A stretch of 26,184 nt of DNA from Candidatus Methanophagales archaeon (GCA_021159465.1 JAGGRR010000078.1:1-26184); one strand, 5' to 3'; positions 5,625 to 23,279 are shown, counted from the stretch's first letter. Translations and numbers: made by a program. The notes: a model not told the origin generated them from the letters alone.

Positions 5625-6155
5625 TCACCAGGGCACTTCTTTCATGCCCAGTTTGAAGCCTGCGAAATTCGTGAGCAGATGCAGCAGGGGCGTAATAAGG
5701 ATGACCACGACCATCACATCAGCAGAGAAGTTGGAGGAGAACCAGTCACGGGCGACAAGAAATAGAAGCAACCATGCCCCACCTACAAAGTCCAGCTGGT
5801 CCACCACGGGTAGAGGAGCACCTCTTCTCAGTCCCAGTCGCCTCTTCACAAAGCTACCCATTATATCACCGAGCATTGCACCTGCGGATAGAGCCAGCAA
5901 TACAATAATGAAGTATGGGAAAGAGCCAAAAGAGCCGTTATAAAGATGTTGGAGCAAGCCGCAGAGGAAGCCCGCAGAGCAGCCTTTGATCAGCCCCTCA
6001 AAAGTCTTACCGTCGCCAAGCAGCCGGTTTCTACCCAGATGAACGCCCCTGTCTATCGGTATCTTGCCACCGAAGAACGCTGCACTTGCATTCGTTATAT
6101 ATGCAGGGAGCATAAGCCAGATCGCGGTACCAACTATGGTTATCGTCATAATCAT
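5625..6155 (-). CDS. carS: CDP-archaeol synthase
   Basis: Small polytopic protein with LPAYITNASAAFFGGKIPIDRG..LLGDGKTFEGLIKG and GDIMGSFVKRRLG motifs of CarS (DUF46). I moved the start to ATG 6155 (MIMTITIV) because the track ORF start at 6206 overlaps the tRNA. Confidence 0.8.
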   Translation of the reverse strand: MIMTITIVGTAIWLMLPAYITNASAAFFGGKIPIDRGVHLGRNRLLGDGKTFEGLIKGCSAGFLCGLLQHLYNGSFGSFPYFIIVLLALSAGAMLGDIMGSFVKRRLGLRRGAPLPVVDQLDFVGGAWLLLFLVARDWFSSNFSADVMVVVILITPLLHLLTNFAGFKLGMKEVPW

Positions 6156-6170
6156 AATTATGAAACGCAA

Positions 6171-6244
6171 TGCCGGGGGCGGGGTTCGAACCCGCGACTT
6201 CGGCATTATGAGTGCCGCGCCCTAACCAACTAGGCCACCCCGGC
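6171..6244 (-). tRNA. tRNA with CAU anticodon (elongator Met type; Ile2/agmatidine type not excluded), no encoded CCA
   Basis: The reverse complement GCCGGGGTGGCCTAGTTGGTTAGGGCGCGGCACTCATAATGCCGAAGTCGCGGGTTCGAACCCCGCCCCCGGCA folds as a 74-nt cloverleaf. Acceptor GCCGGGG/CCCCGGC, D stem GCCT/GGGC, anticodon stem CGGCA/TGCCG with loop CTCATAA, T arm GCGGG-TTCGAAC-CCCGC, discriminator A. Confidence 0.92.
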
Positions 6245-7492: not shown

Positions 7493-8152
7493 ATGGTAAC
7501 GTTACCACTTCCCCTCATCGCTTTCGGTTTTGGGATATTAAGCGTTCTATCACCCTGTATACTCCCGCTCGTTCCACTCATTGCGGCATATTCGACCAGA
7601 ACGAGTAAAATTACGCCTCTAACTGTGGCTATTGGACTCTCTATCTCATTTGCGCTTATGGGTGTACTGGCATCTATCTTTGGCTCGATATTCCAGCGAT
7701 ATAAATTGGTGTTGCAGATTATAGGTGGTCTTCTGATTATATTTCTCGGTTTGTGTATGATATTCGAGTTATTAGAGCAGAAGATACACACAATCATACC
7801 CAGGAAAGGCACCACAAGCACAGGGTTCTCCATTAACCACGTGCATGGAACAGCAGGGGGGCTATTACTCGGTTTTTCGCTCGGTATCGTCTGGACACCT
7901 TGCATTGGTCCCATACTTGGTACTATACTCACAATGGTAGCGGTTGAAGGCGATATACTCTACGGCGCCTTTCTTCTGGTCATCTATTCGCTTGGACTGG
8001 GGTTGCCTTTGCTCGTAATTGCGTATACCACTCATTTCTCAATGAAACCGTTCCTCAAATACAGTATAGCAATAAAGAGGCTTTCGGGAGTTATTCTGGT
8101 GCTGGTCGGGATTTATTTCATATATAATTCGATCATAATCTACGGTTTTTAG
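7493..8152 (+). CDS. ccdA: Cytochrome c biogenesis thiol-disulfide transporter CcdA/DsbD-like
   Basis: 219 aa, six predicted TM helices, with the two signature Cys motifs LSPCILPLVP and WTPCIGPILG. An AGGAGGGG Shine-Dalgarno sequence lies 6 nt upstream. Confidence 0.85.
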   Translation: MVTLPLPLIAFGFGILSVLSPCILPLVPLIAAYSTRTSKITPLTVAIGLSISFALMGVLASIFGSIFQRYKLVLQIIGGLLIIFLGLCMIFELLEQKIHTIIPRKGTTSTGFSINHVHGTAGGLLLGFSLGIVWTPCIGPILGTILTMVAVEGDILYGAFLLVIYSLGLGLPLLVIAYTTHFSMKPFLKYSIAIKRLSGVILVLVGIYFIYNSIIIYGF

Positions 8153-11287: not shown

Positions 11288-11899
11288 ATGGAGAAAGGTG
11301 AAAAGATAATTATTTCGGTGGTTGTTCTGGTTACCATTGTTGTTATTGTTGGTGCGGCGGTAGTGATACCTACAATGATGCAAGAGATGACGAAACCGGA
11401 AAGCTGTGCCAAGAACTGTCATGAGATGCAACCATTTTATGATTCATTGCAGGATTCGCCTCATGCGGGGGTAGACTGTCACGAATGCCATGAGAGTACG
11501 GAGCCAGAGATGTTTCTGTATATGAAAGAGATGACCAACCATCTTGAGGGTATAAGCGAAGGTCTGAAGGCGGGCAAGAGTTTAGATGAGACCACAGCGG
11601 AAATGGCAGAGAAACTGGAGAGTGAGCCACCCACAAGTGCTTCTCTTCCAAAGAATGAGTATTGTATGAGATGTCATAGCACCAATTATAAACCATTAGC
11701 AGAGATTGCAGACCCCGGTATCTCGTGCTTTAAATGTCACTCCACGATTGCACACACCGAACATAAGGTCGCTCTCTACCAGGGATACTGGAGTCCTGAT
11801 TTAGAAGACCACGAATGTGTAGCATGTCATAACGAGCATGATGTAACGGTAAAGGAAGAGACCTGCAAAGCGTGTCACCCACCGGAGAAACATCCTTAA
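11288..11899 (+). CDS. Membrane-anchored multihaem cytochrome c, NapC/NirT/NrfH-like with two extra C-terminal haem motifs
   Basis: N-terminal TM helix followed directly by CAKNCHEM (compare the CxxCHxM of the family). Then CHECH, CMRCH and CFKCHSTIAH (family-like), plus CVACH and CKACH. That gives five CxxCH motifs and one CX3CH. TATA at 11213-11220 and AGGAGG at 11275-11280. Confidence 0.85.
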   Translation: MEKGEKIIISVVVLVTIVVIVGAAVVIPTMMQEMTKPESCAKNCHEMQPFYDSLQDSPHAGVDCHECHESTEPEMFLYMKEMTNHLEGISEGLKAGKSLDETTAEMAEKLESEPPTSASLPKNEYCMRCHSTNYKPLAEIADPGISCFKCHSTIAHTEHKVALYQGYWSPDLEDHECVACHNEHDVTVKEETCKACHPPEKHP

Positions 11900-11942
11900 T
11901 CCTTAATTTAATTTCTCCGGATATTCTTTCTTTTCATTCTAC

Positions 11943-13889
11943 CTACCTGCTTTTATGCGCTTCATTGCATATCAGAATGACCATACCTGCTGCCAGCAAT
12001 ATCACGCCAGACCATACGAGCCATATTAGTGGTACCCGCTTCACTTTTATCCTGAAATCCGCTGGCTGCCGCTTCTCTCCCATGAGCGCATAGAATAGCG
12101 AGTTATAGCTGGAGTTCGTGTGCTCCATAAAGATATAGAGGTCGCCTCGCAACGTGGAGATGATCAGTGGTTTGGACAGAATACCATAGTTTGTATAATA
12201 ATACATCCTTAGACTTTTGTTAGTGTATACAGTAGTGCCATCAACGATAGAGACGTCAAGAGCCAGACTCGAGTATTCAGGCATGGTAAAGAAATGCCCG
12301 GTACTGGCGTAAACATGCCCTCTGCCCGGATATATCGTGGGAGTCCCCAAGGTTATCTTCGCATCGAGCGCATCAACAGTCGAGTTGGGCTTTGCAATTA
12401 TGCCCCTGCTCTCTGTCTGCGCGGTGGAGCTGACGAATACGCCTATTAATATAATAATGATGGCGATATGGATTAGCGCCTTGCCCCATATATATGGAGA
12501 TTGCCTCCCCCCCTTAGTGCACAGAGCGGATCCGAGATAATAAGCGATGGCAAATCCTGCGGCGAGCAGTAGAGGCAGTCCAAAGTTAGCCATCCAGTTC
12601 GGCGTTGGAACACGAAGCAGTACCAAAATCACGCCAATCGCTGCTATTGAGGCGATTGACCATATAAATCTCTTTACCTTCATGCTCATACTGCAGCCCA
12701 TCAATGCAGCGACGAATACGAGTGTGAAAGGGTAGCACCATCTATTATAGAATTCCGGGGTTGTACTCATTGGTGCACCACCCAATGCACCCCCTATTAT
12801 CGGTGCAAGGTCACCCAGGAAACATATAATCATGAGGAACATCAACGACCAGAACGCCACGAATAGAGAGATGGAACTCAGTAACGAGATATCAACTTCC
12901 GGACTGTAAATGGGTCTGGCTCTCTCTGTCCCTGTCCTCAATGCGAGATAGAAGAAGTAAAGGACGACTCCAAGTGCGAATATCAAAAGTGCGGGTCCAA
13001 CAGGCGATTTCCCGAATGCATGAACCGATTCTAAGAGTCCGCCACGGGTAAGTGCAGTGGCAAAGATGACCATGAAGAAGGTAATCATAAGTGTGAGCTC
13101 TCTCATCATATCTTTACTTTTTCCTGGCAGGTGGAAGTATGCAGTAAGAGCAAGCCAGGGGACTAAAGAGGCAGTCTCCACAGGGTCCCATGCCCAATAG
13201 CCACCCCAGCCGAGGACTTCGTAAGACCACCACCCTCCAAGTGCTATTCCAAACGCAAGGAACAGCCACGCTGAATATAGAATAATGCTGTTTAGCTCTT
13301 CTTCGCCTTCTCTCTCGCCTGTTGCCAGCCCCGCAAGCATGAAAGCGCATGCGAAGAATACTAATACATAGCCAATAAAGACTACCGGAGGATGCACAAG
13401 TACCCAGAACGTTTGAAGCAGTGGATTGAGTCCTGCACCATCGGGAGGGTTCATGGGTAGAAGCTCAAAAGGGCTCTTCAATATTGTGAGAACAAGGATA
13501 AAGAAGAGAAAGATGTCCAGTATTCTGGATGCAGCTATGTTGAACCTGCGCTCTCGTCCCAAGACTCTTATGCGATATATAAAGTATATAATAGAGAATA
13601 TGAAGGCGATGAAGAGCATTGACCCGCTACTGCCTATCCACGGATCACCGATCTTGTAAGGTAGAGCGAGACTGGAAGAGCTGTAAGTGTAGACCTCTTC
13701 CAGCCAGAAAGCATCATGTATAAAAGCCATAGTTAGTCTGAAGTATGCAGCGACTACCAGCACGCATGCGAGCGAAGAAGCGAGAAAAGCAGCTTCAAAC
13801 CTCTTCCTCGTGCCAGCCCGCATTAGCAAACTCAGATCGAATAAAAGCAGAACGGCAGCCAGTATTATGAGTGCATCTCCTATATCCAT
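11943..13889 (-). CDS. ccmF: Cytochrome c-type biogenesis protein CcmF (System I haem lyase subunit, NrfE-like)
   Basis: 648 aa polytopic protein. It has the WWD-type motif LGWGGYWAWDPVETASLVPWLALTAYFH, conserved His contexts VLVHPPVVF and ESVHAFGKSP, and a typical C-terminal periplasmic domain with a final TM helix. GGAGGATGGGG precedes the ATG. Confidence 0.9.
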   Translation of the reverse strand: MDIGDALIILAAVLLLFDLSLLMRAGTRKRFEAAFLASSLACVLVVAAYFRLTMAFIHDAFWLEEVYTYSSSSLALPYKIGDPWIGSSGSMLFIAFIFSIIYFIYRIRVLGRERRFNIAASRILDIFLFFILVLTILKSPFELLPMNPPDGAGLNPLLQTFWVLVHPPVVFIGYVLVFFACAFMLAGLATGEREGEEELNSIILYSAWLFLAFGIALGGWWSYEVLGWGGYWAWDPVETASLVPWLALTAYFHLPGKSKDMMRELTLMITFFMVIFATALTRGGLLESVHAFGKSPVGPALLIFALGVVLYFFYLALRTGTERARPIYSPEVDISLLSSISLFVAFWSLMFLMIICFLGDLAPIIGGALGGAPMSTTPEFYNRWCYPFTLVFVAALMGCSMSMKVKRFIWSIASIAAIGVILVLLRVPTPNWMANFGLPLLLAAGFAIAYYLGSALCTKGGRQSPYIWGKALIHIAIIIILIGVFVSSTAQTESRGIIAKPNSTVDALDAKITLGTPTIYPGRGHVYASTGHFFTMPEYSSLALDVSIVDGTTVYTNKSLRMYYYTNYGILSKPLIISTLRGDLYIFMEHTNSSYNSLFYALMGEKRQPADFRIKVKRVPLIWLVWSGVILLAAGMVILICNEAHKSR

Positions 13890-13909
13890 CTGTTATACCC
13901 CATCCTCCG

Positions 13910-14341
13910 TCAATTCACCTCCTGTTCCTTCTCAGCCTGTGCCAATGTTCTGCCCTTCTCATTCACCACACGTACAATCATCATCACCCTATCGCCTTTT
14001 TTCAGCACGACATCCCGGGGGAACCCAATGGTGAAATTATAGGTACCGTTACCATGATAGCTCTGGGCAGCCCAATAGCTCATCTTAGCTCTGTTTACTA
14101 TCGCTTTAGCCTCAACAGCCGGGAAAAACACACCGGAATTACCCTTTGGACTTTGTAAAGGATTCATCTTCTCCTGCTTCATCTCCACTATTCTTACCGC
14201 TGGTCTGTCATCGGTCACTGTAACCACTGCCTGGACTTTTATTACCGGTACCTGCCCCATACTCACCATGGAGTATAGAGCGAGACCTACAACCGCCACA
14301 ACGACGATGGTGACGATGACATTGACGCTGGGCAACCTCAT
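13910..14341 (-). CDS. Hypothetical N-terminally membrane-anchored extracytoplasmic protein (143 aa), unrecognised family
   Basis: MRLPSVNVIVTIVVVAVVGLALY anchor followed by a beta-rich domain with no Cys and a single His. Its ATG overlaps the upstream cytochrome stop (TAATG), and a strong GAGGGAGGAAGAG sits 8-18 nt upstream. It lies 20 nt upstream of ccmF. Evidence for coding is positional, not homology. Confidence 0.6.
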   Translation of the reverse strand: MRLPSVNVIVTIVVVAVVGLALYSMVSMGQVPVIKVQAVVTVTDDRPAVRIVEMKQEKMNPLQSPKGNSGVFFPAVEAKAIVNRAKMSYWAAQSYHGNGTYNFTIGFPRDVVLKKGDRVMMIVRVVNEKGRTLAQAEKEQEVN

Positions 14342-15003
14342 TACTCTCTTCCTCCCTCTATAAACCTCAATAGTGCTTTTAACATATTTAAGATGGTGGG
14401 ATATCTCTTCTCTTCTTCGCTCTTTATTACTGGCACACCCTCCTTCATCTGATAGCCCTCCCCCTTATATTTTATGCCAAAGGAGCCATGGCAGGCGACG
14501 CATAACTCCCCTGTTCTGTTACCATGGATAAAATGAACGCCACCCTGATGGCAGGAGTTGCAATCACCACTTTCTGGCATCCTCAAGTTCTTACCCGCTC
14601 CATGACATCCCCCGCAATCCACATTTATGTGCACACGATGGATTTCATTAGCGGATATCTCCCCAGCTTTTGCTATTCCCGTTCCTATATGACAGTCAAT
14701 ACATGCTTGTATGCCGTGTGCCCTGGTTCTGATTTTTTCATTGTCTATCGCTCCACCGGTCACGTATTCTTTCCCATGACACACACAGGAGCTGACCATT
14801 GAGCGCAATCTGCTCTCAGGGAGGAGTGAGACATGGCATTGCACACATTCCGGTGCTGGATGCCAGGAGCCGATGAAACCCGTTGGATTCGGTGGTATCA
14901 CCTCACTGTTCTCATCGCTCATACCCATACATGTAGTTACAGCGAGGTTTACGATTACAATGAAGAGTAACGCTAACACACACAATTTAAGTTTCCTCAT
15001 CAT
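14341..15003 (-). CDS. Secreted or lipid-anchored pentahaem cytochrome c
   Basis: Signal-like N-terminus MMRKLKLCVLALLFIVIVNLAVTTC. Five CxxCH motifs (CVQCH, CIDCH, CGGCH, CNSCH, CVACH) plus an odd CVCH. I prefer ATG 15003 over the GTG start at 15021 given in the track. Confidence 0.85.
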   Translation of the reverse strand: MMRKLKLCVLALLFIVIVNLAVTTCMGMSDENSEVIPPNPTGFIGSWHPAPECVQCHVSLLPESRLRSMVSSCVCHGKEYVTGGAIDNEKIRTRAHGIQACIDCHIGTGIAKAGEISANEIHRVHINVDCGGCHGAGKNLRMPESGDCNSCHQGGVHFIHGNRTGELCVACHGSFGIKYKGEGYQMKEGVPVIKSEEEKRYPTILNMLKALLRFIEGGRE

Positions 15004-15043
15004 TCGATATATATTTTGCACCAGAGAAATAAAAGTTATACGA

Positions 15044-15059
15044 TCTTAACTTCTTAACT
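15044..15059. repeat. Perfect tandem direct repeat 2 x 8 bp (TCTTAACT) in the cytochrome-operon/proB divergent promoter
   Basis: Read directly: 15044-15051 and 15052-15059. It is flanked by the minus-strand CTTTTATTT box (15027-15035) and the plus-strand TTTATTTATTTATTG. Confidence 0.95.
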
Positions 15060-15085
15060 GATTTATTTATTTATTGATTTATTGC

Positions 15086-18540: not shown

Positions 18541-18954
18541 GTGCGTAAGAAGAGGGTGATAGTGGATACAAATGCGCTACTCATTCCGGGAACGTTCAGG
18601 ATTGATATCTATGAGGAACTTAAAGATATGGGCTATCTGGAGATAATCATACCAGAAGCGGTAATAAAGGAGCTGGAGGCACTGAGCAAGAGCGAAGAAA
18701 AAGGGAGGACGAAGAAGGCTGCTCAGATCGGTCATCAACTGGTGCTCCGACATCTTGCGAATAGCGGTAGCAGGGTGTTCATAGAGCGAAAGGATAGGAG
18801 TGCGGATAGTGATACGGATAGCGAGATCATAAGGGTGGCGAAGATGCAGGATGCCGCGGTTCTCACAAACGATGCGGAATTGAGACGCAGATTGCATCAG
18901 GAAGGGATACCAACGGTGTTCCTGCGGGGCAAGAATAGATTGGCGGCTGACTGA
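18541..18954 (+). CDS. PIN-domain endoribonuclease, Fcf1/Utp24-like (COG1412-type)
   Basis: VIVDTNALLIPGTFRIDIYEEL.., IPEAVIKELEALSK, DSEIIRVA and AVLTNDAELRRRL..GIPTVFLRGKNRL match the archaeal Fcf1-like PIN pattern. There is no ATG, so the start is a GTG at 18541, 18556 or 18562. Confidence 0.72.
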   Translation: MRKKRVIVDTNALLIPGTFRIDIYEELKDMGYLEIIIPEAVIKELEALSKSEEKGRTKKAAQIGHQLVLRHLANSGSRVFIERKDRSADSDTDSEIIRVAKMQDAAVLTNDAELRRRLHQEGIPTVFLRGKNRLAAD

Positions 18955-18981: not shown

Positions 18982-19635
18982 CTAAATCTCTATCATCTTA
19001 CCAGCTTCGCACTTCTTCGCCTCTTCGGGATACATATCCATTATCTCTCTCTTATGTGTGGTGCAATGGCATGGTATGATAATCTTCAGCCCGCTCAGAA
19101 TCTCGAGATGGTCAAAACCATGAAAACCGCCCATCACTCCTCCTAACTTACCGAATTGGTGTGCAGAATCCATAATAACGTCCAGACCTGGATGTGCACA
19201 GCCTGTTAAAACCAGCTCGCCCACTCCTGTATCAAGAACCAGTGACTGCTCCTTTATCCCAACACCAAGCTCTCCTGTTGTATGAACGCCGGGAATGATG
19301 TCCGCGGGTCCAGATACTTCAATTATGCCTGCTGCGTTTCGTTTAATCCTCTTCTTCGTTGCCGCTGTGAAAGAAGCAGGCAGGTACACCATCGCATCGG
19401 GATGCAATACCGCACTCAGACCACCAATATGGTCCCAATGTTCATGTGAGAGCGCAATAATCTCAATCTCCTCTCTCTGTATTCCCAGCTTCTCCATGTT
19501 ACGCGATAGTATCGCTTCTGAAGCGCCGGTATCGAACAGAAGCCTTCTATCTGCAGATTCTATCAGACATGAAAAGCCCCAATCACGCTCTAAACCCTCC
19601 TTCGCTTCATTATCATACACAATTCTCAATCTCAT
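18982..19635 (-). CDS. Metallo-beta-lactamase fold hydrolase (COG1237-like)
   Basis: IVYDNEA..DWGFSCLIE..LLFDTGAS and the metal motif SHEHWDHIGGL. Substrate is unknown. Confidence 0.72.
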   Translation of the reverse strand: MRLRIVYDNEAKEGLERDWGFSCLIESADRRLLFDTGASEAILSRNMEKLGIQREEIEIIALSHEHWDHIGGLSAVLHPDAMVYLPASFTAATKKRIKRNAAGIIEVSGPADIIPGVHTTGELGVGIKEQSLVLDTGVGELVLTGCAHPGLDVIMDSAHQFGKLGGVMGGFHGFDHLEILSGLKIIIPCHCTTHKREIMDMYPEEAKKCEAGKMIEI

Positions 19636-21270: not shown

Positions 21271-21819
21271 CTAAGGACAGTCTCGATCTCGAGCATGACT
21301 CTGAGCATGAACATGAGATTTAAGCATGTGTTTGCATTTATCACAGAGTTCTGCTGGCTTCTTCTTCGCTTCATATACCGAATTTGAGAATTGCATCACA
21401 CATTTATTGGAGCAGTGCTGCAGCCCGAATACGTGCCCCATCTCGTGTATCGCTTCCTTCTTTATCATATTGAGTGAATCAAGCCTGCATGTAGATAGAA
21501 CCGCCCCTTTACCCGGCTTTGCAACCCCAAATACAAAATTCATGCCACGTACAAATATGTCTTCGCTCACTATCCACAAATAGAAAGAACTGGCAGTCTT
21601 AGTCTTAGTCTTAGCCTTGGCCCTCCAAGTGGTGGTAATAGAATTGAGTAGAATCGAGGCGTTGTATTGCATCCTGTTCCTATCATAAGCATCCCTGTCA
21701 GCATCCTTTACAATCGCCTCATCTCCGGGTTCTATCATGAATACAGCTTCAAGCGCTTCTATCACTTCTGACACCACACCTCTGCTCCTGCTGTCATAGA
21801 ATAATTGCAGTTTCTTCAT
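21271..21819 (-). CDS. amzA: Archaemetzincin (zinc metalloprotease)
   Basis: HEMGHVFGLQHC metzincin-type motif followed by the Cys pairs CVMQ and CDKC. NFVFGVA motif. Its ATG overlaps the secY stop (ATGA). Confidence 0.85.
   Translation of the reverse strand: MKKLQLFYDSRSRGVVSEVIEALEAVFMIEPGDEAIVKDADRDAYDRNRMQYNASILLNSITTTWRAKAKTKTKTASSFYLWIVSEDIFVRGMNFVFGVAKPGKGAVLSTCRLDSLNMIKKEAIHEMGHVFGLQHCSNKCVMQFSNSVYEAKKKPAELCDKCKHMLKSHVHAQSHARDRDCP
21595..21618 (-). repeat. In-frame hexanucleotide repeat inside amzA, (AAGACT)x3 preceded by AAGGCT on the coding strand
   Basis: The plus strand reads AGTCTT x3 then AGCCTT. It encodes KAKTKTKT. Confidence 0.95.
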
Positions 21820-23279
21820 TCCTCACCAAAGAACCTTCGTATCGCCGGGTACATCTCCATCATCTGCTCCGATGCCACTTGTTCATAAAGGTTATAAGCA
21901 ATACTCACAGCCAGTAATAACCCGGTGCCGGAAGCTTGACCAAGTGTACCAAATATATTTGCCAGCACACACAGTCCACCAAGAAGTGCACCACCCATTA
22001 TCGCTATTCGTGGTATATAACCCTCCATCATTCGCTCTATCGTTGCGGGATTCCTGCGATGCCCGGGTATTTGCAACCCAGAGCGATGTATCTGCTGTGC
22101 AACATCTTTAGCACCCATACCTGTGGTATTTATCCAGAACAGTGCAAATATCGCACCCCCTGCTACCATAAAAACCAGGTCAATACCAAGGCGCAGGGCT
22201 ATTTGCCAGCCCGCATGTGGTGTTGACATGAGAGTGGGGAACCAATCCCAGGGTCCATAAATCGGACTCAGATAATACATCAAACCAGATACCGCATTGC
22301 CCCATTCATTATACGTACCGAATACAGTAATCCCATGCATTGAGAGTGCTCGCCCGAAACCCTGAATACTCATTTGCAGCGCTCTCACGAGGATCATTGG
22401 TAGTACGCTTGCATATAATAGCTTGATAGGGAACTTACCACGGGCTCCTCGCGCCATCGAATGTGCCAGCGGTATCTCCAGGCGCGTGCTCTCGAGATAG
22501 ACAACAATGAAGAACACCGCGATAGTAGATATGAGGGCGATCAGGTGATGTTGAAATAGGAATGTAACACCTCCTTCAAGTATCTCATACACTTCCACAT
22601 GCAGTGGCGAGCCGGGCCAGAGTAACTGGAACCACCTGGGAATTACACCAACTGGCAGCCCATACTGGTCGGGTTGCCAATTAACGAGCCCGGTAATTAC
22701 CTGCTGCGATACGCCAGCGAGGATGAAGAGCGAGACACCGGACCCTATACCCCACTTCGATACCACCTCATCCATGAAATATATGAGCATCCCACCGAGA
22801 AATACCTGAATGAACAACAGTATAGAGACAATTTGAAGAGATACACCGAGTTTTGAGGCTATCCCAGCATCAGGCATATAGAAGCCCATTACATAGACCA
22901 GACTCATGAAGAGTGCGAATACCACAACGAGAATCTTCTGGATGTTCTGGTAGAATGCCTGGTCGCTGGAGTTACTCAAGTCCAGTTTAAGTATCCCGGC
23001 ACCTACGAGTAGCTGCAGAATGATTGACGCATCTACAATCGGCATTATACCCAGTGCAGTCAATGAATATCGCGTACCTGCGAATATAGTGCGCCATCGT
23101 CCAAAAAGGTCCAATGATTCTGGAGAAAGCCCAAAAAGGGGCACATTACCAAGTACAAAATAGAGTATAAGTATGCCCAGAGTCCATCCCAGCTTGGTCT
23201 TGAAATGGACATGCCAACTCGGGCGCTCAACCATCGGGAATCTATCCAGAATCGGTGTCAGTATCTCTCTTAAGTTCAT
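21816..23279 (-). CDS. secY: Preprotein translocase subunit SecY
   Basis: 487 aa, 10 TM helices. N-terminus ..FKTKLGWTLGILILYFVLGNVPLFG and the C-terminal loop GLQIPGHRRNP are characteristic of archaeal SecY/Sec61alpha. Confidence 0.92.
   Translation of the reverse strand: MNLREILTPILDRFPMVERPSWHVHFKTKLGWTLGILILYFVLGNVPLFGLSPESLDLFGRWRTIFAGTRYSLTALGIMPIVDASIILQLLVGAGILKLDLSNSSDQAFYQNIQKILVVVFALFMSLVYVMGFYMPDAGIASKLGVSLQIVSILLFIQVFLGGMLIYFMDEVVSKWGIGSGVSLFILAGVSQQVITGLVNWQPDQYGLPVGVIPRWFQLLWPGSPLHVEVYEILEGGVTFLFQHHLIALISTIAVFFIVVYLESTRLEIPLAHSMARGARGKFPIKLLYASVLPMILVRALQMSIQGFGRALSMHGITVFGTYNEWGNAVSGLMYYLSPIYGPWDWFPTLMSTPHAGWQIALRLGIDLVFMVAGGAIFALFWINTTGMGAKDVAQQIHRSGLQIPGHRRNPATIERMMEGYIPRIAIMGGALLGGLCVLANIFGTLGQASGTGLLLAVSIAYNLYEQVASEQMMEMYPAIRRFFGEE

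Follow-up and report, generated by a model that had tools for sequence, protein, structure and literature searches.

A conserved pair of genes for a multihaem cytochrome and an immunoglobulin-like anchor protein stands before ccmF in ANME-1 archaea

Anaerobic methanotrophic archaea of the ANME-1 group are major methane consumers of marine sediments and are thought to export electrons via multihaem cytochromes (MHCs). Here, we analyzed a cluster of four genes in a 26,184-nucleotide (nt) stretch of DNA from a Candidatus Methanophagales archaeon (GCA_021159465.1 JAGGRR010000078.1:1-26184), hereafter called the window. Exact-sequence searches traced all of the window's proteins to Methanophagales (ANME-1) metagenome-assembled genomes, with accessions of the MCD62100xx series. 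The genes of the cluster are A, which encodes a NapC/NirT-like cytochrome; B, a multihaem cytochrome; C, an orphan; and D, which is ccmF. We found that the cluster is real and conserved, but that it is not a dedicated nrf-like maturation unit. Judged by gene order, the unit preserved by evolution is the B-C pair, and it is well supported that ccmF was placed behind this older, mobile cassette in ANME-1. Our favored reading, to which we assign a probability of roughly one half, is that the locus would encode a membrane-proximal segment of the ANME-1 electron-export chain that is co-expressed with haem attachment.

The B-C-D order persists throughout ANME-1, even where identity drops to ~43-49%, with changing flanks, and it is found in the deep-branching ANME-1c (Ca. 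Methanoxibalbensis). Where homologues of the orphan are 47-90% identical, they again stand between B and D, with a convergent A present and differing flanks, and A is kept beside D in most ANME-1 lineages. The initial annotation, made from the window's sequence alone, had singled out a pentahaem cytochrome-orphan-CcmF triplet as its candidate functional unit, and synteny comparison confirmed that this triplet is conserved across ANME-1, including ANME-1c, with flanks that vary. We also searched metagenome contigs for the C-terminal motif of B, written as a degenerate DNA pattern, and obtained 29 matches, three of which were false positives (L115, L118, and L125; L numbers denote related loci throughout). 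C lay directly downstream of B in 18 of the 26 true B loci, B-C-D was complete in 15/26, and A converged on D in 9/26. In several ANME-1 lineages, the module continues a known ANME-1 cytochrome cluster, mentioned by Chadwick et al. (2022), with further MHC genes and a signal peptidase.

Could this arrangement have no meaning beyond shared membrane or secretory expression? In that case, ccmF would have landed at the locus by chance in the ANME-1 ancestor, and C would be an unrelated surface or scaffold protein hitch-hiking with B. The flanking genes are indeed housekeeping genes and variable, some lineages lack ccmF at the locus and some lack A, and the immunoglobulin (Ig)-like fold of C is unspecific. 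However, B and C are very tightly coupled: they overlap by 1 nt here, and their spacing ranges from -8 to +37 nt at other loci. At ~28-35% identity, the pair can be followed from ANME-1 as far as Syntrophoarchaeum, and B-C-D is retained over order-level divergence. The density of haem motifs and the gene order, kept in many independent contigs, are far beyond chance. Because B-C persists across orders and its two genes overlap by 1 nt, we consider a neutral gene order distinctly unlikely.

The initial annotation had grouped the orphan with the pentahaem cytochrome and CcmF. The orphan is not tied to CcmF: C follows B, and it does so without ccmF in Syntrophoarchaeum, in a Halobacteriota metagenome-assembled genome, and in one ANME-1 lineage. 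In Ca. Syntrophoarchaeum caldarius, the gene order is ahbA-ahbB-hemA-B-C, followed by unrelated STAS genes and no ccmF. The NCBIfam scores there are 197.6 vs 125 for AhbB, 383 vs 209.6 for HemA, and 139.9 vs 140 for AhbA. The genes of this locus (L109:5191-8423; LYOS01000004.1) are co-oriented, and the start of B overlaps the hemA stop by 8 nt, so that the cytochrome gene is embedded at the end of an alternative-haem-pathway operon. The order is hemA-B-C at L113 and hemA-B without C at L134. In the Halobacteriota genome (L107), which is not ANME-1, B-C also lacks ccmF, and a gene for uroporphyrinogen-III methyltransferase lies two genes away. B-C stands without ccmF at L113 and L136 as well, and in two ANME-1 loci (L105 and L111) the convergent neighbor of B-C is A itself, without an intervening ccmF. 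In every context examined, C was directly preceded by B.

These neighborhoods raise the possibility that B-C, and perhaps A as well, serves the biogenesis of archaeal cytochrome c or haem and not respiration. One possible role for such a module would be to support reductive attachment of haem, by relaying electrons from the quinol pool either to holo-CcmE or to the haem b that CcmF carries; another would be to handle apocytochromes in place of the missing CcmH, CcmI, and CcmG. B, with or without C, stands beside haem-pathway genes in four independent settings (ccmF; ahbA-ahbB-hemA; hemA; and uroporphyrinogen-III methyltransferase), and it is unresolved whether archaea replaced CcmD, CcmH, and CcmI by non-orthologous proteins (Gupta et al. 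2022). However, CcmABCEF alone suffices in Methanosarcina. Moreover, C lacks Cys and any other conserved residue suited to redox chemistry or ligation (its His96 is not conserved). The two loci inspected in Bathyarchaeia, whose CcmF is closest to that of ANME-1, show neither B nor C near the gene, and at L105 and L111 B-C stands without ccmF. Proximity to haem genes could also simply reflect co-regulation of a major haem consumer. We regard a biogenesis module as possible but rather unlikely.

Gene D (11,943-13,889, minus strand) is an open reading frame (ORF) for a full-length, 648-residue CcmF, the System I haem lyase. Its product matches PF01578 with 93.9 bits (cut-off 29.9) and PF16327 (CcmF_C) with 39.7 bits (cut-off 28.7). 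The NCBIfam models TIGR00353 (CcmF/NrfE; 188.8 vs 569) and TIGR03145 (NrfE; 194.2 vs 927) align with it end to end and below their cut-offs, which makes D a divergent member of the CcmF/NrfE family. The protein has ~13 transmembrane (TM) segments and a WWD motif, WGGYWAWDPVE, at residues 228-238. It matches Thermus thermophilus CcmF (6zmq_A) at an E-value of 1e-44, with H166, H253, H290, and H474 each paired with a His. We take these residues to be P-His1, TM-His1, P-His2, and TM-His2, respectively (haem b ligands and periplasmic His). The NCBI label for D is 'cytochrome c biogenesis protein CcsA'. The closest CcmF relatives outside ANME-1, in Bathyarchaeia, are 36-39% identical; two of their ccmF loci have no B or C nearby, and the translations of the neighboring genes read as oxidase-like. 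A contig scan with CcmF itself returned mostly bacterial CcmF, drawn by the universal WGGYWAWD peptide.

Is D a dedicated lyase or the general one? For each ANME-1 genome, a single CcmF is given in the table that supplements Fig 18 of Chadwick et al. (2022), and CcmAB and CcmC-(D)-E carry other locus tags there. The CcmF listed for the thermophilic ANME-1 GB60 is PXF53690.1, the accession next to PXF53691.1, which falls in the cluster of A. That listed for ex4572-4 is B6V00_02360, which follows the homologues of B (B6V00_02350) and C (B6V00_02355). Since the sole CcmF listed per ANME-1 genome is this gene, D is the general System I lyase for ANME-1 and not an NrfE-like extra paralogue. The analogy drawn in the initial annotation, of an NrfE-like lyase dedicated to special substrates as in nrf loci, therefore fails. 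That annotation had also held that its proposed unit would fall if this CcmF were the only copy and the general lyase, with neighbors that vary freely; the listed copy is single and general, but its neighbors do not vary freely.

The cluster resembles nrfEFG in some respects: a CcmF/NrfE-family gene stands among genes for cytochromes, one cytochrome carries a non-canonical motif, and TIGR03145 is the top NCBIfam match of D. Unlike in nrfEFG, D is the sole listed CcmF, it has no NrfF or NrfG partner and no CxxCK substrate, and its score of 194 is far from the cut-off of 927; neither NrfF, NrfG, nor a CxxCK site was found in the window or in related loci. A second parallel is CcmF2 of ANME-2 and ANME-3 with the ANME MHC-B cluster (Chadwick et al. 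2022), in which a CcmF gene likewise adjoins a multihaem cytochrome; a signal peptidase and more MHC genes lie just upstream in several ANME-1 loci. However, CcmF2 is an extra paralogue beside a giant MHC with S-layer domains, whereas here a single CcmF follows a 220-residue cytochrome and an Ig-like anchor protein, and ANME-1 is absent from the listed holders of CcmF2 (Chadwick et al. 2022). A third parallel is the streamlined archaeal System I, CcmABCEF without CcmD, CcmH, and CcmI (Allen 2006; Gupta et al. 2022). Here too, CcmH and CcmI are absent and the ccm genes are scattered, and a system without CcmH is the normal archaeal state (Chadwick et al. 2022; Gupta et al. 2022). D differs in being one 648-residue protein, where the Methanosarcina protein is split, and in sharing an operon with B and C.

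Gene B (14,341-15,003, minus strand) encodes a secreted small multihaem cytochrome of 220 residues. Its longest ORF extends to a GTG start at 15,021 (14,341-15,021; 226 residues), but public gene calls and the sequence favor the ATG at 15,003. The protein has the features of a c-type multihaem cytochrome, with an N-terminal hydrophobic signal peptide, five invariant CxxCH motifs, and 12 invariant His. It also carries a CxCH site (C79-V-C81-H82), both Cys and the His of which are invariant, like the five CxxCH, in 45 B-family sequences. A CxCH occurs in 49/53 B ORFs, where V, N, E, Q, I, or K can stand freely between the two Cys, and the four ORFs without it may be N-terminally truncated. Six of the 12 invariant His in these 45 sequences lie inside motifs and six outside, and the total number of His is exactly 12 both in the window's B and in its S. 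caldarius homologue. The CxCH and the six non-motif His are retained in homologues of ~35% identity (Syntrophoarchaeum and L107). With six motifs (five CxxCH and an invariant CxCH) and exactly as many invariant His outside them, B probably binds six bis-His haems, one of them at CxCH, and would then be a hexahaem cytochrome. The initial annotation of B as pentahaem was thus right about the five CxxCH but missed the additional invariant site. In the searchable literature, we came across no report of haem c being attached naturally at CxCH.

Pfam searches with B gave weak c7/c3-type matches alone, and a profile of the 45 B sequences run against all PDB sequences (E<=1) gave only local c7/c3-type matches, the best E-value being 1e-3. 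NrfB was not among the matches, so the NrfB-like identity first suggested for B is not supported by any detectable relation. B shares weak local matches and an all-His ligand pattern with the c7/c3 cytochromes PpcA, STC, and GSU1996. It has no full-length similarity to these proteins, and unlike them it has the invariant CxCH, a conserved C-terminal amphipathic Y-P-T-I helix (a Y-P/I-T-I segment in distant homologues), and a downstream partner gene, regarded here as obligatory. In one ANME-1 lineage, a B ~72% identical to the canonical protein lacks C or ccmF downstream and adjoins very large surface proteins (L122:7979-8632, L132:422-1075, and L139:143-796); it is either a paralogue or a rearranged orthologue. 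CxCH is not unique to B, since a second, unrelated ANME-1 cytochrome family of ~230 residues has three CxxCH and a conserved CxCH within GPG-C-D-C-H-R (L016:953-1657 and L014:488-1177). No CxCH was found in further MHC ORFs of the fetched loci, except for a CCDCH that contains a normal CxxCH.

Gene A (11,288-11,899, plus strand) encodes a membrane-anchored cytochrome c of 203 residues in the NapC/NirT/NrfH family. PF03264 (NapC/NirT) scores 35.2 bits against a cut-off of 24.1 over residues 6-158 (profile positions 5-171 of 174), and the best NCBIfam match is NrfH, TIGR03153, aligned over positions 3-138 of 138 with 51.1 bits against a cut-off of 134.2. One hydrophobic TM helix spans approximately residues 7-25, and every haem motif lies C-terminal to it. 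The initial count of six haem sites stands, but not all are CxxCH: there are five CxxCH and one Cx3CH (C40-AKN-C44-H45), the latter followed by E-M. This Cx3CH-E-M is present in 34 of 35 A-family ORFs. In the best PDB sequence match, Desulfovibrio vulgaris NrfH (2j7a_C), CTSCHIM aligns with CAKNCHEM; relative to the NrfH equivalog, the Met is thus kept, while the Cys spacing differs and the score is below the cut-off. NCBI labels A 'NapC/NirT family cytochrome c'. Its 90% identity cluster includes PXF53691.1 of GB60, and A is confined to ANME-1 relatives in all 48 organism-named 90% identity clusters.

ANME-1 have menaquinone (mqn) and Fqo genes (PMC5244752), but no obvious candidate for a quinol:cytochrome c oxidoreductase (Chadwick et al. 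2022). The most economical reading of A is as a candidate membrane-anchored quinol dehydrogenase of the NrfH/CymA type, because it passes PF03264, has a TM anchor, aligns with the NrfH model, and keeps an NrfH-like Met, and because the mqn and Fqo genes are present. Like NrfH, CymA, and NapC, A has an N-terminal TM anchor and a four-haem core that spans the NrfH profile, and its Met two residues past the haem-1 His is placed as in D. vulgaris NrfH. Unlike these proteins, A has six sites and not four, two of them in a c7-like extension at the C-terminus; the first of its sites is a Cx3CH; it has no NrfA, NapAB, or Tor partner; and it scores under the cut-offs of both the NrfH and TorC equivalogs. 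No NrfA gene was found in the window or in the related loci compared. In one ANME-1 lineage, a 156-residue tetrahaem NrfH-like paralogue, A', adjoins A (L105:4835-7182 and L111:1885-4232); L138 also carries A', farther downstream.

Each cytochrome flanking ccmF therefore has one invariant non-canonical motif, and it is conceivable that the ANME-1 CcmF, aided by C, is adapted to the CxCH of B and the Cx3CH of A. This idea modifies that of the initial annotation: the cluster would be kept together by difficult substrates, as NrfEFG is for the CxxCK of NrfA. Several observations fit. CcmF is divergent, below its NCBIfam cut-offs and only 36-39% identical to its nearest non-ANME relatives, and the Ccm system of E. 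coli can process Cx3CH and Cx4CH but is not known to mature CxCH. The NrfE precedent has also been invoked for the ANME-2 CcmF2 (Chadwick et al. 2022). However, as the sole CcmF listed, this enzyme must also serve all ordinary CxxCH cytochromes. The homologues of B in ccmF-free settings (Syntrophoarchaeum, L107, and L105/L111) keep CxCH with no ccmF adjacent, C tracks B and not ccmF, and the haem at CxCH is itself putative. We hold a specialized lyase to be distinctly unlikely.

Gene C (13,910-14,341, minus strand) encodes a protein of 143 residues that NCBI labels 'hypothetical protein'. As the initial annotation had supposed, it is uncharacterized: Pfam and NCBIfam profile searches with C returned no family match. 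An AlphaFold2 model (predicted local distance difference test, pLDDT, 84) consists of a helix at residues 3-27 and a seven-strand Ig-like sandwich. Foldseek found weak Ig- or C2-like neighbors with template modeling scores below 0.5, and no CcmE chain was among the best 50 PDB matches of the model. An exhaustive search with a C profile detected 97 representatives at E<=1e-3, of which 34 remained at E<=1e-10. The family members fetched are ~140 residues long, with a TM helix or a lipobox Cys at the N-terminus followed by the same domain. They share a Y-x-G-x-G-x-Y motif (YHGNGTY in the window and YKGAGDY in ANME-1c), and P74, G97, G99, and Y101 alone are conserved family-wide. C is therefore best described, on the strength of the model, as a predicted membrane-anchored Ig-like beta-sandwich protein without a conserved residue of catalytic type.

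Two more specific identities for C were considered and rejected. A divergent CcmE that would bind haem through His96 is ruled out by the Ig-like sandwich, by a canonical CcmE listed at other positions in ANME-1 genomes, and by the lack of conservation of His96, which is Lys in ANME-1c and variable across the family. A CcmH analogue is ruled out because the window's C contains no Cys at all. A PDB profile search with C gave no CcmE (at E<=10), CcmH, or CcmG. The large multi-repeat matches of the C profile that were checked were also set aside as generic Ig- or cadherin-like repeats (Big_9, He_PIG, and MucBP) that do not belong to the true family. Two proteins carry the orphan domain behind N-terminal extensions. 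In P0183 (659 residues, from a Joint Genome Institute contig of 2,829 bp), it forms the C-terminal 117 residues behind beta-propeller repeats of the Sortilin/Vps10/BNR type, and P0015 (233 residues) is another such variant.

How might these proteins work together? Family assignments, motifs, and synteny were read directly, and from them we infer the following steps. A would oxidize menaquinol at its membrane-proximal haem 1 and pass the electrons to B. C, an Ig-like anchor without redox residues, would hold B at the membrane surface, and from B the electrons would move through the abundant multihaem cytochromes, small and extracellular, to the sulfate-reducing partner. Co-transcription with ccmF would couple production of this core cytochrome, B, to haem attachment, with CcmF serving all ANME-1 cytochromes as the general System I lyase. 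A is a concrete, order-wide candidate for the missing quinol step of ANME-1, and B-C is a candidate first acceptor. The families of A and D are already known and automatically annotated, and the ANME-1 ccmF with a nearby peptidase has been tabulated (Chadwick et al. 2022). In the searchable literature, we found nothing on a NapC/NirT protein in ANME-1 or on A as a quinol dehydrogenase, and no description of the B-C cassette, its CxCH, or its linkage to haem genes.

Several points weigh against this electron-export scheme. The NrfH equivalog score of A falls far short of the cut-off, the first haem site of the protein is of the Cx3CH type and not CxxCH, and in ANME-1c its gene lies away from the operon, elsewhere in the genome. 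B occurs without C in one ANME-1 lineage and at L134. B is also found repeatedly beside the haem-pathway genes listed above, and a biogenesis role fits this linkage at least as well as a respiratory one. The AlphaFold2 model of B, built on the 45-sequence alignment, has a pLDDT of 50 and is too poor for the haem geometry at CxCH. The count of a single CcmF comes from a published table and not from a genome scan, and transcript values for the GB60 genes were not found in the supplements of Chadwick et al. (2022).

A more far-reaching proposal, which we hold to be unlikely, combines two claims: that CxCH binds a sixth haem in B, and that B-C is an unrecognized accessory in the biogenesis of archaeal haem or cytochrome c. 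As such, B-C might supply electrons to CcmF or holo-CcmE, or it might act as a substrate chaperone that replaces CcmH, CcmI, and CcmG. If true, an accessory role would explain why the cassette stands behind ahbAB-hemA in Syntrophoarchaeum and before the sole listed ccmF in ANME-1. If CxCH binds haem, the repertoire of haem c motifs is wider than supposed, and the question becomes how a single CcmF would handle it. The link of B-C to haem genes in two alkane- or methane-oxidizing orders is a lead on how System I works without CcmH and CcmI.

The four genes, their coordinates, and their family labels were all borne out by the ORFs and by Pfam and NCBIfam profile searches, as were the operon spacings initially annotated: B and C overlap by 1 nt (TAATG), and C and D are separated by 20 nt. 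Upstream of A, the segment 11,206-11,287 (plus strand) has a TATA-like AAAAATTTATATAT ~60-75 nt upstream and a GGAGG 8 nt before the ATG, and it is likely the gene's own promoter and leader. The converging stop codons of A and ccmF are separated by a T-rich spacer of 43 nt (11,900-11,942) that is probably a bidirectional oligo-T termination zone. On the other side of the cluster, the B/proB intergenic region (15,004-15,073; read on the minus strand) is A/T-rich and divergent, with the TATA-like elements CTTTTATTT and AAAATATATAT abutting the ATG at 15,003. Since these elements lie directly 5' of the B start codon, B-C-ccmF is probably transcribed with a short leader or with none at all. A scan for sigma-70 promoters and intrinsic terminators gave matches at chance level; such bacterial models do not apply to archaea.

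A secreted protein of ~365-390 residues with a C-terminal TM anchor is encoded divergently from B in many ANME-1 loci (L013:5171-6268, minus; L016:6072-7232, minus; L101:5780-6880, minus; and L105:7226-8329, plus). A homologue of this protein stands divergently upstream of B in the Halobacteriota genome as well (L107:3998-5170, minus). It matched no Pfam or NCBIfam family and is missing beside B in the window, where proB stands in its place. The cassette may have a third conserved partner in this protein.

The surroundings of the cluster in the window were as initially annotated: ccdA, arcS, and trm1 lie where they had been placed, with arcS and trm1 between ccdA and the cluster, and no NrfA, CcmH, or ccmABCE was found in the 26,184 nt. 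The ccdA-like gene (7,493-8,152, plus strand) has a DsbD_TM Pfam domain, and its product scores below the cut-off of DsbD-type NCBIfam models (53.5 vs 330). Among the ANME-1 loci compared, it adjoins the module in the window's lineage only, and it therefore lies outside the conserved unit. Two further genes also stand within 10 kb of the cytochrome locus: an EMC3/TMCO1-family gene (PF01956; 17,090-17,749, plus strand) and secY (21,816-23,279, minus strand). PF01956 includes the archaeal YidC/Oxa1-like insertases. Neither gene is conserved beside the module in the other lineages compared, and their proximity is probably coincidental housekeeping synteny.

Two further observations concern the rest of the window. 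A tRNA-Met (CAT) gene lies at 6,171-6,244 on the minus strand. The longest CarS-like ORF (5,625-6,206) runs into it, and the shorter call of 174 residues, adopted in some assemblies, is therefore probably right. Finally, a gene with a metallo-beta-lactamase fold (18,982-19,635, minus strand) has a Pfam match to the anti-Pycsar protein Apyc1 (PF23023), and a PIN-domain gene (18,541-18,954) adjoins it.

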